Assembly: GCA_030390025.1 (NCBI GenBank)
Contig: CM059432.1
Coordinates: forward strand, 1,240,001 to 1,304,000
Direction: 5' to 3'
Length of the DNA stretch: 64,000 nucleotides
From: Squalus acanthias
Taxonomy: Eukaryota
Under the pieces are notes generated by a model. It was given only the letters and a program-made list of their open reading frames with translations, was not told the DNA's origin and did no database searches. This document shows positions 33,848-60,466 of this stretch, in pieces. The position numbers and the translations under genes were made by a program. How positions within the stretch are numbered: the first letter of the stretch is position 1; each line of letters begins with the position of its first letter.

Positions 33848-33992
33848 ATGCCTTCTCACGGTAAACTTGTGGTGCCTGATGGTTTGAAGTCTCTGCTAGA
33901 GGCATTGGGCAGAGCTGTTGTGCAAGACCAGCCTGATAACATACACCATTTTGCCTCATCATATTTCACGGAGTTGCTGCATTTTCGAGATG
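33848..33992 (+). CDS. CABYR: First coding exon of a CABYR-like gene: PKA RIIa-type dimerization/docking (D/D) domain
   Basis: MPSHGKLVVPDGLKSLLEALGRAVVQDQPDNIHHFASSYFTELLHFRD resembles the N-terminus of CABYR (RLVVPYGLKTLLEGISRAV..P.NI.QFAAAYFQEL, from memory). Polypyrimidine+CAG acceptor at 33825-26, AAGATG start, G|GTTTGT donor, 145 coding nt, phase 1. SPA17/ROPN1 paralogs are a less likely alternative. Confidence 0.82.
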
Positions 33993-34102
33993 GTTTGTGT
34001 TCTGCCTTCATTTATTTCTTTGTTGAGTGTTTCAAATATAATCGAATCCCATTTTTTTTGTAAAATACAGCTCAGCTTATTATACTTCCATCTGTTCTAC
34101 AG

Positions 34103-34156
34103 GGAATCCAGCTCTTGATATATGTGATCTAGTGAAAATGTTCCATTTGAGCAGAG
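34103..34156 (+). CDS. CABYR: Second coding exon (54 nt, phase 1-1) of the CABYR-like gene
   Basis: TTCTACAG acceptor and GAG|GTAAGA donor. It translates in frame as GNPALDICDLVKMFHLSR, similar to CABYR GNTTMDIKDLVKQFHQIK (from memory). Confidence 0.85.
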
Positions 34157-37100
34157 GTAAGAACAACCAAATAATTTACTGAATAGGGAATAATCTGCTT
34201 AACTATTTTTCTAGCTGCATTGATTAATACTTATTATAGATTAAGATTGTGCTTTAGTGTTCTTTGTTTTCCTCCACTAAACTATTTATTTGCATTTACA
34301 TTTGATAAAACAATTAAATTGCATCTACAATTTAATGATTAATATATCATGAAACTGCTGGACAAAGAATTTATCTACTTTCAAACCAGTGAGGCAGATA
34401 CATGGATATGCACTTGAAGTGCCGTAACCTACAGGACTACGAACCAAGAGCTGGAAGGTGGGATTAGGCTAGATAGCTCTTTCGGCCGGCACAGACACAA
34501 TGGGCCAAATGGCCTCTTTCTGTGCCGTAAATTTCTATGATTCTATGATTCATGGCAGCAGGAAGAGGAAATCAGAGATGGATAGATCAAGTTTGGAAAT
34601 GGTCAGTTTTGTTTGGATACCTTAGTAATTGATGATATCGAATAATTGGCACTCGTTATATACAAATCATCTTACTCTAATGAAATTCTAGATGAACTAG
34701 TTTGGGCATCACATGGCCTAGGTGTTTGGCAAATAGCTTTTTTTGATTCTTTTTGGTTTCCAGACAGGGTACTGAGGTAAGGTTAATAATGGGGAGAAGA
34801 CATTAAAATTCTTGCGTTTTCCTCTTTTTTTCACACCTATTTCCCTTGGTCACAATTTAGTGACACTTCTTTAATATTGGTAATGCCTAGAGATATTGTC
34901 TGCTTTGAATAAGGAATACTAACGGCTACTATTCAGCCCACTCTTTCATTTTTCTTCTCCCTGCCCACTGACCTGCCCCTATTTGACCCGGCTTCACTTT
35001 TATATTAATTGTTTTTGGTCCTCCAACTGTTGCTCACTCTCTGACCCATTCCTGAGCCCTACAATTGTTGCTCAGCGCCCTTTGCCTTTTTAATAGCGTT
35101 ATAAAGCTTTAAAGGAAAAAATACCTCCTTGTCCACTAAAGCTATTACACAGTAAGGGCTTAAGGAAACAAAATTGTCAGGATCAGCCCGGTGAGGGTGA
35201 TAGTTGGCATAGGGCAGTTAGGCAGAGGAGGGGTTGGTAGTTTAGAGCCTTTTGGCGTCAGCCTAGTGGATGATTGGGGACTTGGACAAATATATGGAAT
35301 AGAGTAATTGACAAATGGGGGCTAGGCATAGAGCGCTAAAATGGAGATGATGCATAAATGGATGGGGTCAGTCTGTTGGGGTAGTTGGAAGCGATGTGAA
35401 GCAATTGTCAACAAGTGTGCACCAAAGAGTAGCAGAGTGGACAGCTGTAGCCAGATCTCTCATCCCCTTCCCACAACACAAAACCTGCCTCAAGCCCTGG
35501 TGAGATCCCTTATCTGACCCACAATTCAAAATCTGAAACTGTGCTACAAACGTGTAGTTTTGGAAATGCAATTTGACCAATTGGGTTAATTCAAAGCAGC
35601 TGTTTGCTGATCAACTCTACTGTACTGGAGTTAGTACCAGTGTACAGTAGAAACAATGTAGTACTTTTTTTGAGATGGAGAGGCAAAGCTGAGAATGTTA
35701 AACTTGTTTAGAACCTTGGTTAGCCCACACTTGGAGTACTGTGAACAGTTCTTGTCTCCATATTCTAAAAAGGATCTAGAGGCACTGGAGGAGGTGCAAA
35801 AAAGATTTACAAGGATGATAGTGGAACTGAGAGGTTACACCTATCAGGAAAGATTGAACAGGCTTGGGGCTCTTTTCTCTAGAAAAGTGAAGGTTGAGGG
35901 GTGACCTAATAGAGGTCTTTAAAATTGTGAAGGGGTTTGATAGGGTAGACATAGAGAAGATGTTTCCACTTGTGGGGGAGTCCAAAACATAAGATCATAC
36001 AAACAATGACAGACAGGTAAAGACCCTCTGGTCCCTCGAGCCTGTCCCACACAATTGCGATATCTTGTGTATCACAACATACACTCTCCACCCTACCCGA
36101 AACCATGTGATCTCCTGGGAAAGGCAAAAAAAAAGATTAAAAACCCAGGCCAATTTAGGGGAAAAAATCTGGGAAATTCCTCTCCGACCCATCTAGGCGA
36201 TCGAAACTAGTCCAGGAGATCACTCTGGCCCTGAATTCCCTGCAGTACCTACCTTCTGTAAGAGGTGATCTCCGCCCCAACCAGAAACAGGGCTAGCTCT
36301 CGCTTGAAGAAATTCCACGAATCAGCATCCACCGCACGAGAAGGCAGCCTGTTCCAGAGGTCCACTATTCTCTGGGAAAAGACCCACCTCCTGACATTTA
36401 ACCTGGATCTAGCCTTATACAATTTAAATTTGTCACCCCGGTCCTCCCTAACCTATTTAATTGAAACAAACTGTCAACTGGAACACAATCTATTCCCTTC
36501 ATTATCTTATAAACCTCAATCAGATCCCCTCTAAATCTACGCTTCTCTGAAGTGTAGACTCCCAACTCTTTTAGCCTATCTTGATAACTAAGATGCTTTA
36601 GACTGGGAATTAGTCGAGTGGCCCTCCTCTGCACCCTCTCCCAAAGCCTCAATATCACCCACCATGTGAGGAGACCAAAGCTGGTCACAGTATTCCAAGT
36701 GCGGCCTGACTAAGGTCTTGTACAAGGACGAAGTAGTATGCCTCATCTTATACTCAATTGTCCTATGGACACAACCCAACACCCTATTTGCTCTAGCTAT
36801 CACTTCACGGCATTGCTCATGTACCTTTTTAAGGATGTATGTACTAGAATGCCTAAATCTCTTTCTAGCTCCACCTTCTTTAATGTTTTTCCCTGAAGGG
36901 TGTATGAATGTTGAGCATTTGCCCTGACCACATGCATAACACTGCACTTGTCTAAGTTATACATCATTTTCCAGTCATGAGCCCAATCTCCTAACACATT
37001 AAGATCTGCCTAAAGTAGACGAGCATCATCTACAGTCCTAATACTCACACAGATCTTGGCATCATCTGCAAATTTGCAGGTCGTGCCCCCATCACCTACA

Positions 37101-37968
37101 TCCAGATCATTAATAAAAATAGAAAAGAGCAACGGTCCCAACACCAATCCCTGTGGGACACCACTGGTGACCGGTCTCCAAACAGATCCAAATCCATCTA
37201 TAACTACCTTCTGCCTACGTCCTGCCAGCCACTTCTCAATCCAGCTCAATATATTATCACTAATACCAGAGGCTTTGATCTTGTAGAGAAGCCTCTTGTG
37301 CTGTACCTTATCAAAAGCTTTTTGGAAGTCTAAGTAGACAATGTCTACTGGGCTTCCCTCATCTACCAACTTTGTAACTTCTTCAAAAAATACAGTTAGA
37401 TTTGTAAGACATGACCTCCTTTTTATGAAGCCATGTTGGGTGTCCCTAATATGTCCCGCTCTATCCAAGCATTCATATATTGCATCCCAAATGATTCCCT
37501 CAAGCATCTTATCTATTACTGATGTTAAACTAATGAGCCTATAGTTACCCGGGTCTGTCTTGTCACCTTTTTTAAAGATGGAGACTACTTCCAGTCTATA
37601 GGAACCATTCCAGAGTGCAGTGAGCTATTAAAAATACAGGTTAGGAGCTCGCACAGCATCTGTCCCATCTCCCTGAGGACCCTCGGGTGGATATCATCTG
37701 GCCCGGCTGCTCTATCTATTTTCAAGTTCTTAATTCTTTCTAAAACAATATGTTCATCTTTGTAAATATTACTAGTTTTGTTAGTAACATTATTAAATTC
37801 TAATAGTTGAGCATCTTCAAGGGTGAAAACCGATGCAAAGTACTCATTTAATATTTCTGCCAAACCCAGTGAGTCCTTTGTAACCTGTCCTTGAACATTC
37901 TTCATTGGCCCAATGCAGTCTTTGACAGTTCTCTGACTCTTCACATAACTGAAAAAGCTTTTCCCAAT

Positions 37969-38712
37969 GGCCCAGAAATTGATCTCGCTCTGTTCCCGCG
38001 GGGGTAAGCCTTCCCCGCGATCTCTCACCTCGCTTGTGCTTTTTCAGATCCAGCTCGCACGAACTTGATGTTCCAGACATCAGCTGTGCTGGGCTTGCGT
38101 ATCCCAGCGGCGTAGTGAATTCGTGCGAGCTGTGGGATCACGTGACTCAGTTAGAGCCAATGGCAGCACACCATCTTCCATTCATAAGTTTCACAGACCT
38201 GCTGTGAAATCTATGAATCTTACACCCCCCCAAAATAACAGCTAAACCTCAATTAAATTTAAAAAAAAACCCATCACATTAATAAAATAAGTATAGTTAA
38301 TTAAATTAACCATTTTAAATAAAAAATTAAATTTTTGAAAAAATTTAAAATCTTTTAAAAAGTTATAAAAATAAACTTACCTGTCTTTAAAGTCTCTAAA
38401 AAAGATATACCTGTAAAAAAAAATTCAAAAAAATACTTAATTCACTACTTACCTTCTTAAAAGCGGGTCTTACTCCTCCTTTTTACATTTCCAAAATCTT
38501 CCCTACTTACCTGCGTGTCCAAAGCATGAAGTGCACAGCGTGCGCGCAGCCTGTAGCGCGCACGCGATGCACCCAGGACCCGCCCCCTTTTCAGAAGAGC
38601 AATTGCCGGTTTTCAGCGCATGCGCAGGGCATGCAGAAAACCGGCAATTGGAGTGGGAATACGCGAGAGTACGCAGTGCGTACTCTCGCATCCCGGGATC
38701 AATTTTCGGCCC
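37969..38712. mobile_element. MITE with Harbinger-like termini inserted in CR1 copy C
   Basis: TIRs GGCCCAGAAATTGATC ... GATCAATTTTCGGCCC, flanked by AAT / ATT; CR1 ORF2 continues on both sides. Confidence 0.75.
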
Positions 38713-39098
38713 ATTACTTCCACAGTTGTCTATGTTCTTTTTTCCATTCGCCTTTTTGCTGATAGCAGCCTTTGTTTTCTTTAGTTGTTCCTTGTACTCG
38801 ACTCTGTTTAGTTGAGTATTAAATGTCTTTAATTTATAGAAACATTTCTGTTTACATCTTATTTATTTTTGTACATAGCCAGTCAGCCACCTTGGCTTTA
38901 TCTTCCCACACTTCCTTCTTTTGACATATTTGTTTTCCACATTTTTTATCTTGTTCTTAAAAACTTTCCATTTGTATTCTATATCGGTCTCATCACCACC
39001 CAGCAGGGTTAGCCAATTTACCCGTTCCAAATCATCTGCCATTTTGGTGAAGTTTGTTCTTCTGAAATCTGGTACGAGTTGCAGGTTCTCAGTATCTT

Positions 39099-40905
39099 TA
39101 GTTCTACTAACTTGATTGAGTTTTTTGATGAGGTAACAGAGAGGGTTGATGAGGGCAATGCGGTTGATGTGGTGTACATGGACTTCCACAAGGCATTTGA
39201 TAAAGTGCCACATAATAGGCTTGTCAGCAAAGTTGAAACCCATGGAATAAAAGGGACAGTGGCAGCATGGTTACGAAATTGGCTAAGTGACAGGAAACAG
39301 AGAGTAGTGGTGAACAGTTGTTTTTCAGACTGGAGGAAGGTATACAGTGGTGTTCCCCAGGGGTCGGTGCTAGGACCACTGCTTTTCTTAATATATATTA
39401 ATGACTTGGACTTGGGTGTACAGGGCACAATTTCAAAATTTGCAGATGACACAAAACTTGGAAGTATAGTGAACAGTGAGGATAGTGATAGACTTCAAGA
39501 CATAGACAGGCTGGTGAAATGGGCGGACATGTGGCAGATGAAATTTAACGCAGAAAAGTGCGAAGTGATACATTTTGGTAAGAAAGAAATACTTGCATTT
39601 ATATAGCGCCTTTCATGACCACCGGACGTCTCAAAGCGCTTTACAGCCAATGAAGTACTTTTGAAGTGGAGTCACTGTTGTAGGAAGAATGAGGAGTGGC
39701 AATATAAACTAATGGGTACAATCCTAAAGGGGGTGCATGAACAGAGAGACCTGGGGGTATTTGTGCACAAATCGTTGAAGGTGGCAGGGCAGGTTGAGAA
39801 AGCGATTAAAAATGCATACGGGATCCTGGGCTTCATAAATAGAGGCATAGAGTACAAAAACAAGGAAGTTATGATGAACCTTTATAAACATAGAAGCATA
39901 GAAGATAGGAGCAGGAGTAGGCCATTCGGCTCCTCGAGCCTGCTCCGCCATTTAATGAGATCATGGCTGATCATCTAAATTCAGAACCCTGTCCCTGCTT
40001 TCTCCCCATATCCCTTGATCCCTTTAGCCTTAACAAATATATCTAACTCCTTCTTGAATATATTTAATGAATTGGCCTCAACTGCCTTCTGTGGTAGAGA
40101 ATTCCACAGGTTCACCACTCTCTGGGTGAAGAAATTCCTCCTCATCTCAGTCCTAAATGGCTTACCCCTTATCCTTAGACTGTGACCCCTGGTTCTGGAC
40201 TCCCCCGCCATCGGGAACATCCTTCCTGCATCTAGTCTGTCTAGTCCTGTTAGAATTTTATAAGTTTCAATGAGATCCCCTCTCATTCTTCTAAACTCTA
40301 GCGAATACAAGCCCAATCGACCCAATCTCTCTTCATACGTCAACACTGGTTCGGCCTCAACTGGAGTATTGTGTCCAATTCTGGGCACCACACTTTAGGA
40401 AGGATGTGAAGGCCTTAGAGAGGGTGCAGAAAAGATTTTCAAGAATGATTCCAGGGATGAGGGACTACAGTTATGTGGATAGACTGGAGAAGCTGGGGTT
40501 GTTCTCCTTAGAGCAGAGAAGATTGAGAGGAGATTTGATAGAGGTGTTCAAAATCATGAGGGGTCTGGACAGAGTAGATAGAGAGAAACTGTTCCCATTG
40601 GCGGAAGGGTCGAGAACCAGAGGACACAGATTTAAGGTGATTGGCAAAAGAACCAAAGGCGACATGAGGAAAAACTTCTTTACGCAGCGAGTGGTTAGGA
40701 TCTGGAATGCACTGCCTGAAAGGGCGGTGGAGGCAGACTCAATCACGGCTTTCAAAAGGGAATTGGATAAGTACCTGAAGGAAAAAAATTTGCAGGGCCA
40801 TGGGAAAGGGCGGGGGAGTGGGACTAGCTGAAGTGCTCTTACAGAGAGCCGGCACGGGCTCGACGGGCCGACTGGCCTCCTTCTGTGCTGTGTAACCATT
40901 CTATG
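39099..40905 (+). mobile_element. 5'-truncated CR1 inside copy C, itself interrupted by an antisense SINE tail (~39582-39680) and an antisense CR1 3' end (~39887-40340)
   Basis: TNLIEFFDEVT...SKFADDTK...CEVIHFG | inserted CTTGCATTTATATAGCGCC...| RKNEE...MNLYK | inserted copy-B-like tail | TLVRPQLEYC... Confidence 0.88.
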
Positions 40906-41684
40906 ATACTAGCTAATTGAAACCATATAATGTTGTGGTCACTGTTGGGCAGATGTTTCCCCAGTTGTTCATGGAAGCCAGATAAGAGGTCAGGCTCACT
41001 ACTAAATACTAGATCCAATAGATGATTATCCCTAGTTACTTCATTAACATGTTGAGTTAGGAAACAGTCTTGTATATTTTCAACAAATGTTTCAGCTGCA
41101 CTTCCCATCACAACAGAGGGTAAACCATCGTGCCACTGACTGCCAAGAAAATTAAACTCACCCATCAAACAAAGGTGGCGTTTTATATTAAAAGCATTTG
41201 CAATCTGTTTCCATAATAACTCATGTTCAGGTGTCTGACCCGGGTGCCTATAACAATTACCGATAATTAATCCCTGCCCGTGAGCTTGCTCCACTTGAAC
41301 CCAGATAACCTCAGCTGTACTTGATGAGGCAATATCAATTCTTTCTCTAGCTGTTAGATTCTCACTGATAAAAATAGCAACCCCTCCTCCCCTTTGACCT
41401 ACTCTATCCTTTCTGAATCCCTTTAGGTGAATTTCTGTCCCATCACTTTAGTCTAGCCATGTCTCAGAAATACACAATATGTCTAATTTCTCCAACACAA
41501 CGTAGGATTGCAGTTCTCATAATTTGTTTCTAACACTCCTTTCATTTACATAAAAATAATTTAAAGGTCTCTCATCTAACTTCTTAGTTATTTATTTTTG
41601 TATGCATTCTACCTGGTTTAATGGCATGCTTAGAATCTATGTAATTATCAAGGTCAGTAAGGCTATCTTTAAACATATCCAACA

Positions 41685-42094
41685 GGAACGGTAGCATAGT
41701 GGTTATGTTATTGGACGAGTAATCCAGAGGCCTGGACTAATGATCCGGAGACATGAGTTCAATTCCCACCATGTGGAATTTAAATTAAATAAATCTGGAA
41801 TAAAAAGCTAGTATCAGTAATGGTGACCATGAAACTATCGGATTGTCGTAAAAACTTATCTGGTTAAGTAATGTCCTTTAGGTAATTTGCCACCCTTACC
41901 CAGTCTGGCCTATAAGTGACTCTAGACCCACAGCAATGTGATTGACTCTTAACTGACCTCTGAAATTGCTGAACAAGCCACTCAGTATCAAACCGCTAGG
42001 AAAACACCTCACGGACTGAAACTCGAGGGCAATTAAGGATGGGCAATAAATGCTGGCATTGCCAGCGACGCCCACACCCAGTGAATAAAAAAAA
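41685..42094 (+). mobile_element. tRNA-derived SINE sharing its 3' tail with the LINE at 43640-45065
   Basis: A-box-like GGTAGCATAGTGG, B-box-like GAGTTCAATTCCC, tail GGGCAATTAAGGATGGGCAATAAATGCTGG...GACGCCCACA...AAAAAAAA. Confidence 0.85.
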
Positions 42095-43639
42095 TCTGCA
42101 CTATCCTCTTGCTGAATTAGTTTAAATGCTTTCTGAAAGCATGCTCAACACCATCTGCCGTCCCTCCATCTTAACAACTTACTTTGTCCAGCGAACACAT
42201 CCCAATTATCGATGAAGTGGAGCTTCTTTTTGCAAAAGGTCCCGAAGCCAGATGTTGAATCCTACGATTTGGCTAATCCTCTCCAGTGATCTGAACATGC
42301 CCAGAGACTACTACCTTTGCACCCCTTTGCTGAAGGTCAGCTATGAGGCCTTTGTAGGAATCCTGTAAAACAAATGGATTTCTATTCATTATATCATTAG
42401 TATCAATATGTAAACCTACTACAGTACCTTGGCACTCACCTTTGATCAGATCATCCACACGGTCCTGGAGATCAGCTACCTTGGCCCCTGGAAGATAAAC
42501 GACTGCTCTTGACAGAGCCTTACCTCTATCGAGGGTGCTATCTGTACGCCTGATGATGGAGTCCCCTATAAGGATTGCACGCTGCCTCTTGCTCTTCCTT
42601 GGCTGTTCACCCAACGATGTCTTCTTGGACTTTGCAGCTTTTCCCTCACCTTTTCCAATATGTTGATATGAGCATTGAGGTTGATCAGTGTCACTGGTGC
42701 TGACCTCACTGCCTGTTGCATCCTCCACATCAAGAAGCAGGGCATACTTATTTGGAGCAACAAAAGAATCCAGAGTGGTGAAAAATCCAGTCATATCAAT
42801 GCCAGACAATGATGACTGACTTTTCGTCCCAGTCAGGAAGTCATCGAAATCCACCAAGTATGTTAATTGGTCAATCTTCTCTTTTAAGCAACCGATCTCC
42901 TGCTGCAGAGACAAAACCTGAACACATTTAGTGCAAGTGAAAGCCCCAGAACTGGGGGCCATCAATATAAGATGGTCACTAATAAATCCACTAAGGAATT
43001 CAGGAGAAACTTCTTTACCCGGAGAGTGGTGTGAATGTGGAACTTGCTACCACAGGGAGTGGTTGAGGCAAATAGCACAGATGCCTTTAAAGGGAAGCTG
43101 GATAAGTATAAGAGGAAGAAAGAATAGAAGGATATGCTGATACGGTTCGATGGAGTCAGGTGGGAGGAGGTTTCTGTGGAGCATAAACACTGGCATAGAC
43201 CTGTTGGGCCAAATGGCCTGTTTCTGCACTGTAAATTCTACGTTCTGTAATATTACAAGAGGAGAAGAATGGAATGTGATCTAGAGTATGTTTCAACATG
43301 TGCATTCATGTTGAATTTAGCTTGAATTATATTAACGTACTTAGTTTTTGGTATCAATGCAATATGAAGAAAGCATTCTGAAAGTTATTTGTACAATGCA
43401 TAATTTAAAAAATACTTTCTATAAGGAATGCAGTTATCCTTTCTAGTTTCTTTCACAGAAAAGTGAATATATATTTAAAGTTCTTGAAATACACTGGCCC
43501 AGAATTTCCTCAGTGATTTATATTGCTGTTGCACCTGTAAAAAAAGGAAAAACTTTTACATTCACCACTGATCTCTAGAAGGAGATACATGGAAGTTTCC
43601 TGAATTTGCTTACTTGTATATCTGTTGATGCAAGCATTA

Positions 43640-45065: not shown

Positions 45066-45404
45066 CAGCTGAACCAGCAGGAAAGTTCCGTGCAGCCTTG
45101 TAAATGCATTGTTCAGCTTCTGCTATTCAGCAGAACACTGGTGTACTAGAAGGTAAGGCAGTAACACTGCTTGGCTTTTTCATTTCTCTCTCATTACTTC
45201 ACTGCAAGTCAATATTTTTACTATACAAGGACAGAATTATGGCATGGCACCAAGGCAGAGGTGTGAAACATGCAAAACCTCACTCCTTCGGACCCCCTGC
45301 GGAGCAGTGAAGGCTGGATGACCAGACCCCTGGGCATTACCAAGTCACCCGGAATTATCACTCGTGCCACCGGCACTAACCGCCAACTTCCTCACACCCA
45401 GGAA

Positions 45405-47380: not shown

Positions 47381-47399
47381 ATCATTTAACTGTAGTGCA

Positions 47400-47560
47400 A
47401 TTGGTGGGATTGATTTGTTTTAATTTAATTTGAATTAATTAAAGGGTAAGTCATGGCAGGAGAGCTCGGCCCCGTGGTGTGCTCCTCCTGTGCTATGTGG
47501 GAAATCAGGGACCCATCCGGTGTCCTTGACAACCATGTGTGCGGGAAGTGCGGGACTGCA
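47400..47560 (+). mobile_element. CR1 5'UTR/ORF1 start fragment
   Basis: ATGGCAGGAGAGCTCGGCCCCGTGGTGTGCTCCTCCTGTGCTATGTGGGAA is homologous to 7330-7380. Confidence 0.8.
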
Positions 47561-47899
47561 GAACAATGCTGCAAGAAGATCCACATCCTCAACAAGGCCT
47601 TCAGTATACTCTGGTGAAGAGCGCCTCTAATTCCCTATGCTACACTATGACTACACAGTTACCCAAACACACAACCGCCTTGCACAACCCCAAAACCCTG
47701 TCCTGCACTTTTAACCCCCCTCACACCCCCACATATCTTCCAGCCACACACTACTTAACTGCAAGCCTTACCCTCATTTACTTATCTCTTTGCAGGATAA
47801 ATTGGCACACAATTCCCACCTAAAGTATGGCAGCAGCTGGGCCAACCCCACCGTTAAACTTGTAGGATTTTTGGTTTAACTCTCTTTACTCTTTAGGGT

Positions 47900-50800
47900 A
47901 ATCATAGAGTCATAGACTCATAATGGCACAGAAGGAGGCCATTCAGCCCATCGAGTCCATGCCGGCTCTCTGTAGAGCAATCCAGTCAGTCCCATTCCCC
48001 CGCTCTACATTGAATGTCTCCGCTTACACCACATCCGTCGGCAGCGAGTTCCAGGACCTCACCACTCGCTGCGTAAAAAGGTTTTTCCTCACTCCCCCCC
48101 GAATCTCTTGCCCAAAACCTTAAATCTGTGTCCCCTAGTCCTTGTACCATCAACTAGTGGGAACAGCCTTTCCCCGTCTAGCCTATCCAAACCCGTCATA
48201 ATCTTGTACACCTCTATCAAATCACCCCTCAACCTCCTTTGCTCTAATGAAAACAAATCCAGCTTCTCCAACCTGTCCTTGTAGCTAAGATCCCCCATCC
48301 CCGGAACCATTCTGCTAAATCTCCTCTGCACCCTCTCAAGTGCCTTCACATCCTTCCTGAAGTGTGGTGACCAGAACTGGACGCAATAATCCAGTTGTGG
48401 CCTAACCAACGCTTTATAAAGGTTCAGCATAACTTCTCTACTTTTGTACTCAATACCTCTATTTATGAAGCCCAAGATCCCATATGCTTTGCTAACCACT
48501 CTCTCAATATGTCCCGCCACCTTCAGGGACCTATGCACATTAACTCCCAGGTCCCTCTGACCCTGCACACTCTTTAAAACTGTGCCATTAAGTGTATATT
48601 GCCTCTCCCTGTTCCTTCTGTCAAAATGCATCACCTCACACTTCTCTGTATTAAATTCCATCTGCCACTTGTCTGTCCATTCTGCTAGCCTTTCTATGTC
48701 CTGTTGCAGTCGATTGGTATCATCCTCACTGTTTGCCACACCCCCAAGTTTGGTGTCATCGGCAAATCTGTATTCCAATATCCAGGTCATTTATATATAT
48801 CAAAAAAAGCAGTGGCCCCAGCACTGACCCTTGGGGAACACCACTGTCTCCAGTCTGAAAAACAGCCATTTACCACAACTCGCTGTTTTCTGTCCTTAAG
48901 CCAATTCCTTACCCAAGCTGCCATTGACCCACCTATTCCATGAACCTCAATTTTGTTAACCAGCCTTCTGTGTGGTACTTTGTCAAACGCCTTCCTAAAA
49001 TCCATGCAGACAACATCCATTGCATTCCCTTCATCGATCCTCCCTGTTACTTCATCAAAAAATTCAATTAAATTAGTTAAACACGATCTGCCTATTACAA
49101 ATCCATGTTGGCTCTCCTTAATTAGCTTAAACCTCTCCAAGTGCCCGTTCATTTTTTCCTTGATTATTGTTTCTAAAACTTTACCCACCACTGATGTTAA
49201 ACTGACCGGCCTGTACTTACTAGGATTGTCCTTACACCCTTTCTTGAACAATGGTGTCACATTTGCCACTTTCCAATCCTCAGGCACCTACCCTGCATCT
49301 AGGGAAGATTGGAAAATTATGGCAAGCCCTTCTGCTATCTCCTCCCCGAATTCCCTTAGCAATCTGGGATGCAAACCATCTGGACCAGGCGACTTATCCA
49401 CTCTAAGCATACGCAATCTTTCTAGTACATCCTGTCTATCAATTTTCACCCCTTCCATTGCTTCTACCTTTTCCACTTCTACCGATATTTTGTCAGCATC
49501 CACCTCCTTAGTAAACACCGATACAAAGTACTGATTGAGTATTCTAGCCTTGCCCTGCGCCTCTAAGCATATATCACCTTCTTTGTCCCTAATAGGCCCC
49601 ACCCCGCCTCTTACTACCCTCTTACTGTTTACATGCTGGTAGATGATTTTTGGGTTCCCTTTTATGTTAACTGCCATTCTACTCTCATATTCTCTCTTTG
49701 CCAATCTTATTTTCATCATTACTTCCCCTCTAAACTTATTGGGGGAAAAATTCAGTATCGCTCCATTTGGGGCGCAATTATCAGCCGGGCTCAAAGATTA
49801 GCGCCTGGCGCTAATTATCGCCTCCGACTGCAAACTTGGCTTTTATCGCCACTGGAGGTGATTGGAGCGCTAAATCAGGCGCTTCACACCTGTCTTAAGG
49901 CGCAAAGGCCGAGGAGCGAGGCGCTACCTCAGAGCACTGGCGAAGCTCATGTGATGTCAGTCAGCAATGGAACAGACACAATGGCGCCGGCCAGTTCTTA
50001 AAGGGGAGGGTTGATCTTGCTCTCCATCCACATCCTGCTCATTGCAGCCTTGAATCTCGGCCTGGAGAGACCTGTACATCAAATCTGCTGGAAAGAACAA
50101 TGGAGAGAACCAGGGAAAGGGCTCAGAGTGCAGCCCCCACAGTCTCTTCTAAATAGATGCAAGGAAGGGCAAATCAAAATGAACCTGCAAAGTGCTGCTC
50201 AGTACCCAAAACTCCTTCACACAGCGTTGAATCTCTCCAGAAGTCTCTCTCTCTCTCTCTCTCAGAATGCGTGGTGCAAAAATGTCACCAACAAAAAAAG
50301 GCAGGAAGCGTTCGCCTTTAAATAGCGCTCCCCCAGTTCCTTCCTGACTGCAAAATGCTCCCCTCAACCGGTCGTTGCTAGCGGCAGGCGGTAAGGCAGG
50401 GGGCGCCACTCAATATCCGCTCCGGGGCGTTGCGCACTCGACTGACGTCACGATCTGCCAGCGCAGGAGATCGTGGCGCTAGTGTTTAGCGCCGTCGCAA
50501 AATGTCTAGTTAATTTCGCGAGCGGCGCAAACATCGCCGCGCCCGGGCGCTAGTTGCTTTGCGCCCCATTAGCGCCCTCTTAAGGCGCTAACGGGAGGCG
50601 CAACCAACTGAATTTTTCCCCCATTGTATTTGGTCTGGTTCTCCCTTGAAGAATTCACCTGACATTCATCATGCACCCTCTTTTTTTTGTTTCATCATCT
50701 TCTCAATCTCCCTCGTCATCCAAGGAGCCCTTGCTTTGGTTCCCTTACCCTTCCCTCTTGTTGGTATGTGCCTAGCCTGTAGTTGGAACATCTCCTCCTT

Positions 50801-52523
50801 AAAGATCACCCATTGTTACGTTACAGTTTTTCCTGTCGGTCTTTGGTTCCATTTTACCCTGACTAGATCCTTTTGCATCCCATTGAAGTTAGCGCTATTC
50901 CAGTTTAGAAGTTCCACTCTAGATTGTTCCTTGCTCCTCTCCAATGCTAATCTAAATCTTATGATACGATGATCACTCGTACCCAAGTGTTCTCCCACAG
51001 ACACTTGGTCGACCTGGCCCACCTCATTCCCCAGCACCAGATCCAGCAATGCCTCCTTCCTAGTTGGGCTAAGAACATACTGGTCAAGGAAATTCTCTTG
51101 AACACATTTCAGAAATTCCTCCCCCTCCTTTCCCTTTACCCTAGCATTATCCCAATCAATATTTGGGTAACTAAAGTCCCCCAATATCACCACTCTATAG
51201 CTCTTGCATATCTCTGTGATTTCCCTGCAGATTGGCTCCTCTGCCTCCCTCTCACTATTTGGAGGCCTGTAGAATACCCCCAATAGCGTGATCATACCCT
51301 TTTTGCTCCTCAGCTCTAACCAAATGGATTCTGTCCTTGTCCCCTCAAGATCATCCTCCCTTTCCAACACTATAATGTCTTCCTTAATCAGCACTGCCAC
51401 CCACCTCCCTTTTTTGCTTCCCTATCTTTTCTGAACACCTTGTACCCTTGAATATTAAGTGCCCAGTCCTCACCGTTTTTAAGCCACGTTTCCGATATTG
51501 CCACACGGCTAATTGTGCTTGTAGCTCACCAACCTTATTCACCAAACTTTGTGCGTTTACATACATGCATTCTAAACCCATTTTTGAATTTTTCGTAGTC
51601 TTTCTTAGTCTGTTCCTATCTAATATGGCACTACTTCCGCCTCCAGCACTACCTTCCCCTCCAGTACCATCCAACACACTCACTCTTCCATGCACCCCAT
51701 TCCTTCCCTCCACTCCTACAAGCTGGTGCCCATCCCCTGCTAAGCTAGTTTAAACCCTCCCCAACAACACTAGCAAACCTCCCCGCGAGAATATTGGTCC
51801 TGGCTCTGTTGAGGTGTAACCCGTCTGGCTTGTAAAGGTCCCACCTTCCCCAGAAATGGTCCCAATGCCTCGGGAATCTAAAGCCCATCTCCTGCACCAT
51901 CTCTCCAGCCACGCATTCATCTGTTCTATCCTCCTATTCCTGTACTCACTAGCACGTGGCACCGGGAGTAATCCAGAGATTACTACCTTTGTGGTCCTGC
52001 TTTTTAATCTCTTTCCTAGCTCCATATAGTCTGCCTGCAGACCCTCATCCCTCTTTCTGCCTATGTCGTTGGTACCGATATGGACAACGACCTCTGGCTG
52101 TTCACCCTCCATCCTCAGAGTGTCCTGCAGCCGCTCAGTGACATCCTTGACCCTGGCACAGGGAGGCAACATACCATCCTGGAGTCACGTCTGCGTCCAC
52201 AGAAACGCCTATCTGTTCCCCTAACCAATGAATCCCCTATCACTATTGCTCTTCCACTGTTCTTCCTCCCCCCCCCATGTGCAGCTGAGCCACCCGTGGT
52301 GCCGTGGCCTTGGCTCTGGCTGCTCTCCCCAGAGGAGACATCACCCCCACCAGTTTCCAGAACTGTGAACCGGTTAGCGAGCGAGATGCACTCTGGAGAT
52401 TCCTGCCCTACCTGCCTGGTCCTCCTTCTCTGGTGGTCACCCATTCCCTCTCTGCCTGCACATTCTGAGGCTGCGGGGTGACCACTTCTAGAAACGTGCT
52501 TTCCAAGTATTTCTCAGCCTCAC
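47900..52523 (-). mobile_element. Near full-length CR1 LINE (copy D), split by a MITE
   Basis: ORF1 esterase (IGDSLVRG, VHIGTND) at 51750-52444; APE at 50816-51713; RT at 48089-49794. Confidence 0.93.
49741..50622. mobile_element. Non-autonomous Harbinger-type DNA transposon
   Basis: Perfect 16-bp TIRs GGGGGAAAAATTCAGT / ACTGAATTTTTCCCCC and 3-bp TSD ATT (49738-40, 50623-25). Excision restores the CR1 ORF2 reading NQTKYNKFRGEV. Confidence 0.88.
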
Positions 52524-52532
52524 TTAATCAGA

Positions 52533-52719
52533 AATGAGAAGTCGCACAACACCAGGTTATAGTCCAACAGTTTTATTTGAAATCACGAGCTTTCGGAGCG
52601 CTGCTCCTTCGTCAGGTAAAGTGAGGGATTTCAAATAAAACTGTTGGACTATAACCTGGTGTTGTGCGACTTCTCATTTTTGTCCACCCCAGTCCAACAC
52701 TGGCATCTCCGCATCATGG
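52533..52719. mobile_element. Miniature fold-back Penelope-like insertion (same family as 9807-10842), 13-bp TSD
   Basis: ~52-bp inverted arms (AATGAGAAGTCGCACAACACCAGG... / ...CCTGGTGTTGTGCGACTTCTCATT); same tail TCCACCCCAGTCCAACAC.GGCATCTCCGCATCATG; TSD TCACTTAATCAGA at 52520-32 and 52720-32. Confidence 0.88.
52583..52619 (-). ncRNA. Minimal hammerhead ribozyme-like motif
   Basis: Minus strand reads TTAC-CTGACGA-A-GGAGC-AGC-GCTCC-GAAA-GC-TC-GTGA; perfect stem II, CUC cleavage triplet. Confidence 0.68.
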
Positions 52720-54084
52720 TCACTTAATCAGAGGTAAGATCATCCAAAGATTTAAACTTTTCTAACAATTGGTTTTGTTAACATTTAAAATACAAGTTTT
52801 ACAGATAGAGATTAATACAACCTTAATTCGAAGTACAACTCTAAACTCCGAACGGCCAATTCTTCTGCTTCGGGAGACTGAGAGGTTAATTCTCCATTGA
52901 CATCCTACGTGGTGTTCTTCTGACCTGTCTTTGTGGTCTCCTCATGGACTGTCTCCTTCCTTCACTTTAGAATGGCTGCTCTTACACCATTCTTGCTGAC
53001 AAAAACAAGCTTCTCTGTAACTTTCCCCTCTCACGTTACACAGACTGGTTACACAGACAGATGCTATGAAAATAGCACCTGGTGTTTACCACTGTTTCCC
53101 AAAGTCTTCCAAGGCCTCCTTATCTGTAGCCTTCCAGACAGTCTGAATAATATTTTTGCACGTCACCAACCTTCCCAGCAATGCCACCTTGAATAGTCAG
53201 TTTATCAGTTCCTTGGTTGAAATCATACTTTTAACCAATCTCAGCTCCTTTAGCAGGTAGTTAATCCAGGTTTCTAGCCAATCTTTAAGTTTCCTTGAAA
53301 CGTATTGAAAATTCCAAAATCCTTCAATCTCCTCACCCGCTTCGAGGACAAGGCCAAGACCGCTTGTGGGGAAGCACTCAGCTTTTGCCATGGGAGATGT
53401 TGAGGTCGGCAGTTTCTTGACTGAGCACCTGCACTATTGCCCTGATACCCCTGTGAAATACCACACAGACAGCACCATCCACCCCCTTTCTCTGTCTCCA
53501 TAATCTCAAGGGGGATTCTCCCCTTCCTGCAGATCTACCAGAGCAATGTGTGGCATAGGAGGAGGAAGATGATGGCGAAGAGGATAATGATGAAGACTAT
53601 GCCACCCAGGAGTCGCAGCTGCGTGATACTGCCGTCCTTCAGGACAGCAGCATATGCCAGGCCTCCAGCCGTACCCCTCAGGGCATCATGCCAGTGGAAC
53701 ATGGGAAGTTGAGACCAGGTTGCCCAGGAGCATCCTCTAGAAATGCAGCCAACAGTGGTTCCATGCCAGCTGCCATTGGACAAGGACAGCAACCTCAGTT
53801 GCATGACACTTTTATAGAGCATGAGGAGCCAACCACTTCAAACACCTAGAGGAAGCACGAATAGGCCCCCATAGAGAGCACCATATTTCCTTCGTCCTGA
53901 GTACACCTGAGGTTGGATGGGAGGGGGTTGTCTGTGAGGGTCTGAATATCTGCTGGCGCTCTGACCCTCTGAGAAGCCGTCAAAAGCAGGTGCAGGTGTC
54001 TTGTAGGTAGAATTCAAAAAGAAACACATCTTAAAATCTTTTCCTACCTTCAGAGATCTTCAACAAAAGATTTTCAGCCTTTGG

Positions 54085-54632
54085 GAACAGCTCGCTTCCG
54101 CCTTTAACAGCTGATCCCGACAACTGTGGTGCCGCATTGAAACAGGTGTAACTTGCCCCGAACGCACTGGTTCAGGAAACTGCATCCACAATGCCACGCT
54201 CAGGCGGGCGTATGGAAATGAAGCCATTGAGCAGGCTGATCACAGAACTGCTCCAAAATCACGAGCAAACTCGAGAGGAAGCTGATGAAAGGCAGATAAG
54301 CACTGGTACCAGCTTGCCCACAACTTTCTTCACTGGAAAAATTGCTAATGCCATTCCAGCGCTGCTAAAGTATTGCAAGCAACGAGGAAACTTCTTCCCC
54401 CAGAGAGTGGTGAGAATGTGGAACTCTACCACAGGGAGTGGTTGAGGCGAATAGCAGAGATGCATTTAAGGGGAAGCTAGATAAGCACACGAGGGAGAAA
54501 GGAATAGAAGGGTATGTGGAATAGGGTGAGATGAAGTAGGTGGGAGGAGGCTCGTGTGGAGCATAAACTGGCATGGACCAGTTGGGCCGAATGGCCTGTT
54601 TCTGTGCTGTAAATTCCATGTAATTCTATGAA
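54085..54632 (+). mobile_element. Non-autonomous head+CR1-tail element (homolog of 17150-17610)
   Basis: Shared junction sequence with 17280-17420; ends with TAAATTCCATGTAATTCTATG. Confidence 0.7.
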
Positions 54633-54779
54633 ATTCACCCCCACTGTGCTGTTTAGTGTATAAGTATAGTGGACTACTGTGAATAAAGGTGTATTATGTT
54701 GATGAAAATTATTACTATTGGCTCTTTAGTTTACTCTAACTAAAACTACTTTTACTTCTTTCTTTACAAATCATAATAG

Positions 54780-57700
54780 CTGTAAATATTGATGGGAAGG
54801 CACACCGACCAAGCTCCGATGATCAAAATGTAAAATCACTGTCTAAGGATTCTTCACTTATTAATCAGGAAGTTATGTCTAAAATTCTTTGTGAGAAAAC
54901 CCCTTCTGTTCGTCATGAAGCCGTACCTTGTCCATCTCTGCCTATGATTAAGGATCCTTCTGTACATCAAGAAGTTGCACCCACTCCAAATCAAACCTTC
55001 CCTCATCAAGAAGCTGTATCTGGTCCACATGAGAATTTCCCTAGGGCACCATATGTTCGTCATGAAGCTGTACCTGTTCCATACGAACCTATGATTAGGG
55101 CACCATATGTTCGTCATGAAGCAGTACCTATTCCGTATGAGTCTTTGGCTAGGGCTCCATATTATCAAGAAGTCGTACCTGCTCCATATGACCCTTACAT
55201 CAGGGCTCCATATTATCAAGAAGCCATACCTGCTTCATTTGAGCCTGTGATTGTAGCCCCAGCTATTCGTCCAGAACCTATTCCTGTTCCTATTCCATAT
55301 GAAACTGTGATTATGACTCAGCCTCTTCGTCAAGCACCTGTGCCTGCTGCATATGATTACAGGATTAAAAGTTCTCCTGTTCGTCAGGAGGTTTTACGTT
55401 CCCCGTATGACGCAAGTTCATCGCCTGGTCATCAAGGAACTGTACCTACTGCAAGTGACACCAAGTCCCTGTCTGTTTGTCCACCAGCTGCACCTTCTCA
55501 ACATGAGAGTCTGTCCTCGCCTACTCGTACTGAACCAATACCTGTTACTTATAGCAGTAAAACCTCAGAGGTTCGTCAGGAATCTGTACGGGTTAAATCC
55601 CCACCTGCTCTTCAAGAATGTTCATCTTCTCAATTTGAAAGAAAGTCCCCGATTATTTTCCAACAAGCAATGGCACCTCAATATCAGTCCCCACCTGTTT
55701 ATTCACAACCTATACCATCTCCATTTGAGCCTATACCTCCATCTTACTATCAAGGGGTACCTACTCAATATGCAAATATGGCTCCAGTTGTTTACCAGCC
55801 CATATCACCTCAATACACCGCTAGGTCCCCTCCTCTTTATCAACCAACAACAGCTTCTCAATACGAAAATAAGTACCCATTAATTGGTCAACAAACAGTA
55901 CCTGCTCAGTATGAAACTTTTTCTCGGCCAATTGAGGATAAGTCTGTTTATCAACTAGCTCCAGGTGAGACTTTAATATGTACATCTGTTCCACAAGAAA
56001 GTGTGAGGCTTCCATCACCTATTCCATATGAGGGTTTGAAGATAAGTCCCTCTGTTCGTCAAGAAAATCCACCTGCTGCAAGTGGCGAGATCTTATCTGT
56101 TTGTCAAGACCATTCATGTGATCAATGTAAGAAGGTCCCATCTACTCATCAAGATAAACTGGCTCCATGTGGCGATGTGTCATCTGTTTGCCAAGACCAG
56201 CCATGTGATCTCTGTAAGAAGGCTCACTCTACTGCTCAAGATAAACCGGCTCCATGTGGCAATGTCTCAACTGTTTGTCAAGACCATTCGTGTGATCAGT
56301 GTAAGAAGGCCCAATCTACTTCTCAAGATAAACTGGCACTAAGTAGCGATGTCTCATCTGTTTGTCAAGAACATTCATGTGATCAATGTAAGAAGAAATC
56401 ATCTCGTCAAAAGTTATCGGCTGCTCCAAGTGGTGATGTCTCAACTGTATGCGAAGAACATTCATGTGATCAATGTAAGAAGAAGTCATCTCGTCAACAG
56501 TTATCGGCTGCTCCAAGTGGCGATGTCTCAACTGTATGCGAAGAACATTCATGTGATCAATGTAAGAAGAAGTCATCTCGTCAACAGTTATCGGCTGCTC
56601 CAAGTGGCGATGTCTCAACTGTATGCGAAGAACATTCATGTGATCAATGTAAGAAGAAGTCATCTACTCGTTTACAGTTATCGTCTGCTCCAAGTGGCGA
56701 TGTCTCAACTGTTTGCGAAGAACATTCATGTGATCAATGTAAGAAGTCGTCATCTACCTGTCAAGAGTTCTCATCTGCTCCAAGTGGTGATCTCTCAACT
56801 GGTTGTCAAGATCCTTCATGTGATCAATGTAAGAAGAAGTCATCTACCTGTCAAGAGGTCTCGTCTGCTCCAAGTGGTGATCTCCCAACTGTTTGCGAAG
56901 AACATTCTTGTGATCAATGTAAGAAGAAGTCATCTACCTGTCAAGAGGTCTCGTCTGCTCCAAGTGGTGATCTCCCAACTGTTTGCGAAGAACATTCTTG
57001 TGATCAATGTAAGAAGAAGTCATCTACCTGTCAAGAGGTCTCGTCTGCTCCAAGTGGTGATCTCTCAACTGTTTGCGAAGAACATTCTTGTGATCAATGT
57101 AAGAAGAAGTCATCTACCTGTCAAGAGGTCTCGTCTGCTCCAAGTGGTGATCTCTCAACTGTTTGCGAAGAACATTCTTGTGATCAATGTAAGAAGAAGT
57201 CATCAACCTGTCAAGAGGTCTCGTCTGCTCCAAGTGGTGATCTCCCAACTGTTTGCGAAGAACATTCATGTGATCAATGTAAGAAGAAGTCATCAACCTG
57301 TCAAGAGGTCTCGTCTGCTCCAAGTGGCGATGTCTCAATTGTATGCGAAGAACATTCATGTGATCAATGTAAGAAGAAGTCATCTACTCGTCAACAGTTA
57401 TCGGCTGCTCCAAGTGGCGATGTCTCAATTGTATGCGAAGAACATTCATGCGATCAATGTAAGAAGAAGTCATCTACTCGTTTACAGTTCTCGTCTGCTC
57501 CAAGTGGTGATCTCTCATCTGTTTGTCAGGACCATTCATGTGATCAATGTAAGAAGGAGTCATCTACCTGTCCACGATTCTTGTCTGCTCCAAGTGGTGA
57601 TCTCTCAACTAGTTGTCAAGAAGAGTCATGTAATCAATGCACTAAGTCGTCATCTACCTGTCTAATGTTCTTTTCTGCTCCAAGTGGTGATCTCTCATCT

Positions 57701-60466
57701 GGTTGTCAAGACGAGTCATGTGATCAATGCAATAAGGAGTCATCTACCTGTCAGCAGTTCTCGTCTGCTCCAAGTGGTGATCTCTCAACTGGTTGTCAAG
57801 AAGAGTCATGTGATCAATGTCGGAAGAAGTCATCTACCTGTCAGCAGTTCTCGTCTGCTCCAAGTGGTAGTCTCTCAACTGGTTGTCAAGAAGAGTCATG
57901 TGATCAATGTCGGAAGAAGTCATCTACCAATCAACAGTTCTCGTCTGCTCCGAGTGGTGATCTCTCATCCGGTTGTCAAGAAGAGTCATGTGATCAATGT
58001 CGGAAGAAGTCATCTACCAATCAACAGTTCTCGTCTGCTCCAAGTGGTGATCTCTCAACTGGTTGTCAAGAAGAGTCATGTAATCAATGTAGGAAGAAGT
58101 CATCTACCTGTCAACCGTTTTCATCTGCTCCAAGTGGTGATCTCTCATCTGGTTGCGAAGACCATTCATGTGATCAATGTAAGAAGAAGTCATCTACCTG
58201 TCAACAGTTTTCATCTGCTCCAAGTGGTGATCTGTCTTCTGGCTGTCAGGACCCTTCATGTGATCAATGTAGCAGGACGTCATCTGCCTGTCAACAGTTT
58301 TCATCTGCTCCAAGTGGTGATCTCTCAACTGGCTGTCAAGACCCTTCATGTGATCAATGTAAGAAGAAGTCATCTACCTGTCAACAGTTCTCGTCTGCTC
58401 CAAGTGGTGATCTCTCAACTGGCTGTCAAGACCCTTCATGTGATCAATGTAAGAAGAAGTCATCTACCTGTCAACAGTTCTCGTCTGCTCCAAGTGGTGA
58501 TCTCTCAACTGGCTGTCAAGACCCTTCATGTGATCAATGTAAGAAGAAGTCATCTACCTGTCAACAGTTCTCGTCTGCTCCAAGTGGTGATCTCTCAACT
58601 GGCTGTCAAGACCCTTCATGTGATCAATGTAAGAAGAAGTCATCTACCTGTCAACAGTTCTCGTCTGCTCCAAGTGGTGATCTCTCAACTGGCTGTCAAG
58701 ACCATTCATGTGATCAATGTAGGAAGGTGTCGTCTACTCGTCAAGAGTCTTCATCTGGTCCAAGTGCCAATGCCTCATCTAACTGTCAAGACCATTCATG
58801 TGATCAATGTAGGAAGGTGTCGTCTACTCGTCAAGAGTCTTCATCTGGTCCAAGTGCCAATGCCTCATCTAACTGTCAAGACCATTCATGTGATCAATGT
58901 AGGAAGGTGTCGTCTACTCGTCAAGAGTCTTCATCTGGTCCAAGTGCCAATGCCTCATCTAACTGTCAAGACCATTCATGTGATCAATGTAGGAAGGTGT
59001 CGTCTACTCGTCAAGAGTCTTCATCTGGTCCAAGTGCCAATGCCTCATCTAACTGTCAAGACCATTCATGTGATCAATGTAGGAAGGTGTCGTCTACTCG
59101 TCAAGAGTCTTCATCTGGTCCAAGTGCCAATGCCTCATCTAACTGTCAAGACCATTCATGTGATCAATGTAGGAAGGTGTCGTCTACTCGTCAAGAGTCT
59201 TCATCTGGTCCAAGTGCCAATGCCTCATCTGGTTGTCAAGACCATTCATGTGATCAATGTAGGAAGGTGTCGTCTACTCGTCAAGAGTTCTCGTCTGGTG
59301 CCAGTGCCTCATCTGGTTGTCAAGACCATTCATGTGATCAATGTAGGAAGGTGTCATCGACTCGTCAAGATTATTCTACTGCTCCAAGTGGCGATCTCTC
59401 AACTACTTGTCAAGACCATTCATGTGATCAATGTCGGAAGGTGTCATCTACTCGTCAAGATTATTCGACTGGTCCAAGTGCCAATGCCTCATCTAGTTGT
59501 CAGGATCATTCATGTGATCAATGTAGGAAGGTGTCATCTACCCGTCAAGATTATTCGACTGCTCCAAGTACCAATGCCTCATCTAGTTGTCAGGATCATT
59601 CATGTGATCAATGTAGGAAGGTGTCATCTACTCGTCAAGATTATTCAACTGCTCCAAGTACCAATGCCTCATCTAGTTGTCAGGACCATTCATGTGATCA
59701 ATGTAGGAATGTGTCATCTACTCATCAAGATTATTCATCTGCTCCAAGTGGCAGTGTCTCATTTGGTTGTCAAGATCCTTCATGTGCTCAATGCAAGAAG
59801 GCATCATCGACTCCAATTAGCGATATCTCATCTGCTGGTCAAGAGCATTCATGTGATTATTGTAGGAAGGACTCATCTCAAGAATCTAAACCATGTGGGG
59901 TCTGTGAAAAATGTACCCAAAAAGCCTCTCGTGAAAGTCCCCAAGACCCCCAGGCTCCTACATTGCAATGTTTGTATAAGGCTCCATCATCTGCATATGG
60001 TGCACAGGACAATGCGTCTTCAGATCCATCAACAACATTTAGTCCACAGAATAGTGTGTGTAAGGCCCCACCCTTTAATCAAGGAAGTCCTGATGGAGGT
60101 CATTCTGACACATTACCCACCAATAAGCCCATTTTCATGCACCTTTCCACAAAATGTTGCATTGTGAACTATAGTGATTCATCAACTTGCCTTGAACCTG
60201 TAATCGTATACCATGAATCTACAATTCAGAGAGTATCAGAAATTCACTTGAAGGATGAACCTGATGCTAAAGATGCTGGTGTATGTTCTGCTGAGGATGC
60301 TGCATCAAAAGACAAAAAAGCTGAGGCAGCCTCACCTGCTCCTCCATCTGAAGAAGATACATCTTGTCATAGCTCTACAGATTCTGTATGTGGGAGATCA
60401 GAAGGAGATGCACAGGAAAAATCATCCACTGGTGAAGCAGATGCTGGTAAGGAAGATGCAAATTAG
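54780..60466 (+). CDS. CABYR: Giant third coding exon of the CABYR-like gene: Pro/Tyr-rich repeats, ~42 Cys/His-rich 30-aa repeats, acidic C-terminus
   Basis: Uninterrupted 5.7 kb ORF. A pyrimidine-rich acceptor ending TAG at 54777-79 gives phase 1 (G+CT=Ala), then 31 open codons in frame with the ATG at 54875. It ends at TAG 60464-66 or at the donor CTG|GTAAGG (60446/7). Linkage to the D/D exons is inferred from phase and strand. Confidence 0.8.
56090..59870 (+). repeat. Coding tandem repeat, 90-bp unit (some 84-87 bp), ~42-43 copies
   Basis: Consensus SSAPSGDLSTGCQDHSCDQCKKKSSTCQQF; length changes preserve the reading frame. Confidence 0.97.

Follow-up and report, generated by a model that had tools for sequence, protein, structure and literature searches.

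What kind of protein is made from a locus in which two small exons for an RIIa-type dimerization/docking (D/D) domain lie upstream of a 5.7-kb open reading frame (ORF) filled largely with Cys-rich tandem repeats? We addressed this question for a window of 64,000 nucleotides (nt) of Squalus acanthias, which corresponds to C8:1240001-1304000 of the assembly. Coordinates without a prefix are positions in this window, and those with a prefix refer to assembly contigs. The locus holds a CABYR-family gene with an undescribed repeat domain, and the gene is one of a tandem pair. We place high confidence in the gene model and in the assignment to the CABYR family; what the repeat domain does is discussed at lower strength.

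The first-pass annotation of the window had recognized an RIIa D/D domain at the N-terminus of a CABYR-like protein, and this domain was borne out. Exon 1 matched the Pfam family RIIa (PF02197) with 35 bits (cut-off 22.4; E 1.1e-8) over residues 12-45, covering profile positions 2-35 of 38. Among solved structures, the domain also matched D/D chains of PKA RII-alpha (E 8e-4 to 0.14); its best match was SPA17, at 31-33 bits, and no CABYR chain among the solved structures was matched. SPA17 shares the RIIa domain, and CABYR and SPA17 both appear in the R2D2 group in an excerpt of a D/D superfamily survey (PMC8339350). The SPA17 orthologue of this shark, however, is a separate locus on another contig: its first coding exon at C22:36330628-36330753 (L015) reached 71-75 bits with the solved SPA17 chains and 52 bits with RIIa. 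With 31-33 bits against 71-75 bits for the C22 locus, the window gene was excluded as SPA17. A Pfam scan of the products of the window gene reported only RIIa, so no IQ motif was found in them.

The joining of two small phase-1 exons in frame to the large exon, as first annotated, also held. The three coding segments (145 + 54 + 5687 nt) add up to 1962 codons, the last of which is the only stop. The donors of exons 1 and 2 are ATG/GTTTGT and GAG/GTAAGA (the slash marks the splice boundary), and the acceptors of exons 2 and 3 are ...TCTACAG/GG and ...CATAATAG/CT. In-frame stops lie upstream of the ATG at 33848, including a TAA 18-20 nt before it. Skipping of exon 2 would preserve the frame, as would skipping of exon 3 (see below). 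From stop to stop, the ORF of exon 3 spans 54740-60466 (1908 amino acids [aa]). The other two plus-strand frames likewise stay open in the array region (440 and 833 aa), so that openness there is no evidence of coding. The unique parts flanking the array (about 440 and 190 codons) are open in one frame only, and the array joins them in frame. The N-terminal part of exon 3 also contains a tandem repeat of 54-nt period at 55041-55162.

The large exon had been taken as the last one, which is probably not so. A donor, ...CTG/GTAAGG, follows position 60446, and a further exon (exon 4) lies 12 kb past exon 3, beyond the window, at C8:1312837-1313666, with the acceptor ...ttttctaatgtag/GT. The tail that it encodes is acidic and includes pentapeptide repeats in which Pro, Thr, and Lys are frequent. 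Taken as 54780-60446, exon 3 comprises 5667 nt (1889 codons) and is in phase 1 at both entry and exit, so its inclusion or skipping leaves the frame unchanged. The nearest AATAAA past the read-through stop is at 61514, about 1 kb on. We conclude that exon 3 is probably not terminal but a symmetric phase-1 cassette, ending most likely at the donor after 60446. The 1961-aa protein of the first-pass annotation is the read-through form and likely not the main product; the spliced forms have 2232 and 343 aa (Table 1).

Table 1. Segments of the window gene (window coordinates) and its predicted products.
Feature	Position or length	Strand	Description
Exon 1, coding part	33848..33992	+	145 nt; ATG and RIIa domain (residues 12-45); ends in phase 1
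Exon 2	34103..34156	+	54 nt; 18 codons; symmetric, phase 1-1
Intron	34157..54779	+	20.6 kb; LINE (long interspersed nuclear element) fragments on both strands; skipped by the skate protein P0004
Exon 3, N-terminal part	54780..56101	+	Pro/Ser/Val-rich; short P-Y-containing repeats
Exon 3, array	56102..59857	+	42 tandem units of 28-30 aa with the core C-x4-C-x2-C
Exon 3, tail	59858..60446	+	degenerate last unit, then acidic Ser-rich unique sequence; ends in phase 1
Read-through tail	60447..60466	+	donor GT, five codons, TAG stop at 60464-60466; used only if the donor is unspliced
Long form	2232 aa		237 kDa; isoelectric point (pI) 5.2; 169 Cys
Short form	343 aa		pI 4.65; exon 3 skipped
Read-through form	1961 aa		requires that the donor after 60446 is ignored

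One further feature of the last exon (L001:1330-2157) was seen along with the model. A stretch of about 40 residues that separates an acidic region rich in Ser, Glu, and Lys from the pentapeptide repeats is conserved across the shark and skate sequences compared. It gave sub-threshold HSBP1 matches in two of four relatives (E 0.09-0.12; 13 bits, cut-off 28.6) but none in exon 4 of the window gene itself, and the HSBP1 reading was dropped.

Related proteins gave evidence for both spliced forms: exon 3 is retained in some transcripts and left out of others. The RIIa exon was 88-94% identical in four shark and ray proteins (4 matches among 49 candidates). One of them, P0004 from a skate, is the 280-aa product of an assembled contig of 1353 nt. 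It aligned to exon 1 (from 33848), to 34105-34155, and then from 54779 onward, with 60% identity and E 3e-73, and it holds the RIIa domain, exon 2, and the first 214 residues of exon 3. Because a contig of 1353 nt is too short to contain the 20-kb intron, the RIIa exons of the skate are joined to exon 3 at the predicted site. Between shark and skate, the N-terminal part of exon 3 is 60-63% identical over about 208 aa. An exhaustive search of 1.84 billion representatives, with the array left out of the query, returned P0004 as the sole match (63% identity, E 3.9e-64).

Exon 2 was matched by residues 49-66 of P0003-P0006. In three relatives it is joined straight to the last exon: P0003 from Heptranchias perlo (XP_067833839.1, 'neurofilament medium polypeptide-like X4'), P0005 from Amblyraja radiata (XP_032875412.1, 'proteoglycan 4-like X3'), and P0006 with its cluster member P0007 from Leucoraja erinacea (XP_055490252.1, 'proteoglycan 4-like X2'). 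The sequence that follows exon 2 in these three is absent from the window and was found at C8:1313010-1313654 (E 1.5e-42). They are short-form orthologues of the window gene, lacking exon 3 and not named CABYR. In a word-based comparison of exon 3 residues 1-440, array left out, with proteins of 1041-3315 aa, none of the 5623 candidates scored. The long form thus appears to be unannotated in the collections searched. As a side observation, 20 residues encoded at 7154-7213 (+) match the N-terminal extension of the Heptranchias protein P0003 with 75% identity (E 0.002). This stretch could represent a 5' exon further upstream, or else a fragment of a repeat that both share; an extension of the P0003 type cannot be coding here because of the TAA that precedes the ATG at 33848.

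Contigs from sequencing runs fitted the predicted edges of exon 3. A contig of run X1 started to fit at 54779, after 29 unplaced letters, and an X1 contig ended at 60446, whereas one of run X2 fitted to 60448 and was followed by 27 unplaced letters. The two extra letters at 60447-60448 are expected because the next exon starts with GT. Together the X1 and X2 contigs covered parts of the array and both edges of exon 3. We read these two runs as probable RNA because their contigs stop at exon edges and because they hold 130-161 million letters per run against a genome of 3.7 Gb. Contigs of runs X9 and X10 crossed both exon 3 edges, differed by 2-4%, and resemble DNA from close relatives.

The genomic neighborhood of CABYR had been set beforehand as a test of the family assignment. 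Of the 41 ORFs scanned in the window, eight were LINE-type (reverse transcriptase, endonuclease, GDSL esterase), one was a sub-threshold MH2 match, and 32 had no match. Because the flanks within the window consist of LINE debris only, synteny was taken from the whole assembly. The stretch 47-60 kb upstream contains TTC39-family exons in the same orientation as the gene (C8:1180348-1192520, +; 3 of 23 genome matches). On the opposite strand, exons of the OSBP family (Oxysterol_BP) follow at 82-105 kb beyond the last exon (C8:1395738-1419568, -; 5 of 63 genome matches). The sole IMPACT-type (UPF0029) match in the genome is further downstream, at C8:1613274. The flanking genes were assigned by family only and not as the C and 1A members. 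A gene table for pig gives the order TTC39C, CABYR, OSBPL1A (PMC8871947), and a human table places these three together with IMPACT at 18q11.2 (PMC4346930). The neighborhood of CABYR was therefore recovered around the shark gene at the level of gene families.

A genome search with exon 1 gave three matches. Besides exon 1 and the SPA17-like locus, it recovered an exon at C8:1356722-1356850 with 53% identity. This exon belongs to a second CABYR-like gene (C8:1356713-1369710; L014, L021, L022), which lies in tandem, 43 kb past the last exon of the window gene and before the OSBP-family gene. Its layout resembles that of the window gene. Its first exon, with an ATG of its own, has 142 nt (145 in the window gene) and an RIIa match of 33 bits, and its second exon likewise has 54 nt. 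Its third exon is entered in phase 1 at the acceptor ttacaaatag/ and stays open for about 1 kb to the same CTG/GTAAGG motif near the exon end. The two genes differ in the length of exon 3, in the Cys array, which the paralogue does not have, and in exon 4, for which no similar sequence was found downstream of the paralogue. Over their first 120 residues, the paralogue product of about 407 aa and that of the window gene share 37% identity (E 7e-18). The window gene is thus the upstream member of a tandem CABYR-like pair at the TTC39C-CABYR-OSBPL1A position. A unique one-to-one orthologue of CABYR was not obtained, since two tandem CABYR-like genes share the locus and either or both may correspond to it. 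The earlier statement that CABYR has become a polymer in this lineage is too strong, given the ordinary-sized paralogue without an array next door.

Mammalian CABYR, a calcium-binding protein of the fibrous sheath whose tyrosine phosphorylation accompanies capacitation, has RIIa at its N-terminus, followed by a small exon and then by one large, fast-evolving exon. The shark gene is built alike, with RIIa at the extreme N-terminus, a small exon, and a large fast-evolving exon, and its neighbors are likewise a TTC39-family gene on the upstream side and genes of the OSBP family and IMPACT type on the downstream side. In a mouse study (PMC3398308), the RII domain of CABYR comprises residues 12-48 (12-45 in the shark gene), and its deletion abolishes binding of AKAP3 and AKAP4. 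The same study describes two mouse isoforms, CR-A of 453 aa and CR-B of 199 aa, which arise by splicing around a stop between two coding regions; the stop of the shark gene lies 18 nt past the exon 3 donor, so isoforms by splicing around a stop are a shared feature. It also calls the proline-rich repeat region of CABYR 'extensin-like' (PMC3398308), to which the pentapeptides of the last shark exon, rich in Pro, Thr, and Lys, may be compared. The shark gene differs in that its long form is about five times longer, in that it is one of two tandem copies, and in its 42-unit Cys-rich array, for which no counterpart was found.

The array was therefore analyzed as a separate element of exon 3. At the nucleotide level it is a 90-nt tandem repeat at 56073-59800 with 41.7 copies, 90% matches, and no indels, and the frame is intact over its 3.7 kb. 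At the protein level, all three Cys of the core C-x4-C-x2-C are present in 42 of 42 units, at a spacing of 28-30 residues, and a degenerate unit follows. Nine positions (C1, S5, C6, Q8, C9, S13, S14, P23, S24) are invariant in all 34 full 30-aa units. A fourth position is Cys in 18 of these units, Arg in 13, Asn in two, and His in one. Cys is encoded in the full units by both of its codons (89 TGT, 13 TGC). The retention of the core Cys, the use of both codons, and the intact frame speak for constraint on the array. The array had first been described as Cys/His-rich. The Cys part of this description is right (about 148 Cys in 1259 residues, 12%), whereas the His part is overstated: the 'His' position holds His in 22 full units and Pro or Glu in 12 (six each), and Ser (24%) and Cys are the dominant residues. 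The picture that the sequence suggests is a young, still-expanding coding minisatellite that keeps its three Cys constant along with a small number of Ser, Pro, and Gln positions.

No relative of the array was recognized. With E values of up to 1 allowed, Pfam gave zero families for the exon 3 product of 1894 aa, and neither profile nor sequence matches linked the array to zinc fingers, metallothionein, or keratin-associated proteins. Its one match among solved structures was insignificant (E 0.038), and its best score in the ESM Atlas was 0.86, a low recognition that gave no relative. A genome search with the repeat unit returned 113 matches; 13 of them lie in exon 3 at 58-100% identity, and no copy was found elsewhere. 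The other 100 (C17, C2997, and other contigs) were 21-33% identical, mostly with in-frame stops, and were judged to be low-complexity or satellite sequence, not relatives.

The best joint explanation, which we think probable though far from assured, is an alternatively spliced CABYR-family gene whose long product is an AKAP-docked, crosslinked structural protein, possibly of the sperm flagellum. Its structural, sperm-tail part is by itself tentative, and we put it on the doubtful side of even. As the family would suggest, the RIIa domain would dimerize and dock on the amphipathic helix of an A-kinase anchoring protein (AKAP). The long form would thereby hang two largely unfolded tails of about 2150 residues on the AKAP anchor. 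Judged from composition, the roughly 150 Cys per tail (42 units with three invariant Cys each) might be oxidized to intermolecular disulfides, or might first hold zinc, and crosslinking would leave an insoluble matrix where the protein docks. The short form may occupy that site as well, without crosslinking, and serve there as a soluble competitor or regulator. Because CABYR acts in the flagellum in mammals, the sperm flagellum would be the likeliest location; in elasmobranch sperm, the accessory longitudinal columns would be one example. ODF1, SMCP, and keratin-associated proteins are Cys-rich, disulfide-crosslinked proteins of sperm tail and hair. They may serve as a working analogy, as they share with the array a high Cys content in short tandem units, and crosslinking would be expected of the array as well. 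They differ in unit length and Cys spacing and, judged by the lack of any Pfam match on exon 3, have no sequence relationship to it, and only the shark array is fused to an AKAP-docking domain. A genome search for the AKAP3/AKAP4 family (PF05716) gave no match, but it used a stricter first look and the controls were silent too, so the search says nothing about absence.

Several results weigh against this explanation. All RefSeq-derived relatives found skip exon 3, and two large protein searches returned no long form, P0004 being the only protein that bears exon 3. None of the 13 sequencing runs is on record as RNA. The partners that the X1 and X2 contigs join at 54780 and 60446 are inferred, and the X1 contig fits from 54779 and not from 54778, so that it may join exon 1 or another exon. 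For the family assignment, word-based searches gave no named CABYR (4 matches among 49 and 4 among 20 candidates, all shark or ray). The three nearest named clusters of the skate protein P0004 in the ESM Atlas were all CABYR, which speaks for the family, although the scores of 0.80, 0.78, and 0.77 are below the 0.9 level and rate as a lead only. Within the array, the variation at the His position makes a classical Cys/His zinc site unlikely.

The remaining difficulties speak at the same time for a rival explanation, namely that exon 3 is a tolerant disordered region grown by unequal crossing-over into a runaway coding minisatellite, with a working short form and a minor or nearly neutral long form. 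Nine of 33 adjacent unit pairs are identical over 90 of 90 nt, and a crude between-unit ratio of nonsynonymous to synonymous differences (pN/pS) was 0.63. An AlphaFold2 (AF2) model of seven units had no confident fold, with a mean predicted local distance difference test (pLDDT) score of 39.3 and 207 of 210 residues below 50. Much of the array may thus be weakly constrained, and the skipping of exon 3 in three of three RefSeq models among the relatives would fit such a region. Uniform tolerance is at odds with the unit itself, where the three Cys and S5, Q8, S13, S14, P23, and S24 are invariant and other positions are free. The intact 5.7-kb frame, the 60-63% identity of the N-terminal part of exon 3 between shark and skate, and the probable RNA contigs over parts of the array and both exon edges also stand against it. 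We regard neutral expansion of this kind as unlikely.

A still less likely rival keeps the docking but not the crosslinked polymer: the array would be a zinc or copper store or buffer, a very long metallothionein-like domain tethered at the AKAP site. Its Cys content (about 148 in 1259 residues) and the CXXC of every unit, with a third Cys four residues upstream, would suit metal binding, as would the His nearby in 22 of 34 full units. The array, however, has no similarity to a Pfam metal-binding family or to a solved structure, Pro or Glu can take the place of His, and a unit offers merely three or four Cys per 30 residues, with long Ser-rich linkers between. That the large ORF is a separate transcript, not joined to the RIIa exons, is close to refuted: the putative partner of the X1 contig at 54779 and the interrupted pyrimidine tract of the exon 3 acceptor would leave room for it, but P0004 has RIIa, exon 2, and 214 residues of exon 3 in one contig, the exon phases agree, the paralogue has the same acceptor context, and no in-frame ATG has upstream exon evidence of its own.

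Within the preferred explanation of an AKAP-docked structural protein, a more specific proposal can be drawn. The 237-kDa long isoform might be the main building block of both accessory longitudinal columns of chondrichthyan sperm flagella; we consider this improbable as it stands. The protein would be an AKAP-docked dimer through RIIa and would polymerize through its roughly 150 Cys in a repeat found nowhere else. It would have originated when CABYR was duplicated in tandem and a coding minisatellite with a 90-nt unit expanded, and exon skipping would set the ratio of crosslinking to non-crosslinking forms. If true, this would be an independent route to the stiffening that mammals get from outer dense fibers and the fibrous sheath.

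Other repeats were recorded in the window and along the contig. Positions 1-5158 are a G-rich satellite with a 28-nt unit (higher-order period 55/56 nt), about 184 copies, and 88% matches, which runs off the window start; its GC skew is about +0.7, and all three plus-strand frames are open for hundreds of codons. Fragments of LINEs lie at 7578-8924 (+), 10981-11904 (+), 18652-20295 (-), and 30261-32903 (-), and within the large intron at 37010-51421. In their ORFs a GDSL-type esterase occurs together with an endonuclease and a reverse transcriptase, as in esterase-bearing CR1/L2-like elements. Downstream of the window, two simple-repeat arrays with several frames open on both strands, one of GC-rich units (C8:1319910-1322020; L017) and one with a Pro/His/Thr-like translation (C8:1399487-1402636; L025), are probably satellites and not genes.

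Our literature search found no paper on shark CABYR, and a 'CABYR-binding protein like' reported from the ovary in a shark paper is a different gene. The main text of a catshark sperm proteome paper (PMC11083954) does not name CABYR, AKAP, ropporin, fibrous sheath, or SPA17. The D/D superfamily survey regards CABYR as an addition of 'higher animals', and its supplement has no CABYR entry (PMC8339350). Elasmobranch flagella have two accessory columns (PMC11856307). According to reviews (PMC11276731), structures attached to doublets 3 and 8 first appear in cartilaginous fish. In the excerpts of the literature available, no statement on the composition of the accessory columns in shark or ray sperm tails was found.

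The locus means that CABYR-type genes, two of them, were already present between TTC39C and OSBPL1A in a shark. A 5.7-kb coding exon of one of these genes seems to be absent from the automatic gene models of three related species in the collections searched. If the array should be a neutral expansion, it would still be a clear case of a coding minisatellite kept in frame within a skippable exon. The combination of a docking domain known from the mammalian fibrous sheath with a crosslinkable array of this length makes the long form a concrete candidate for a component of the accessory columns.

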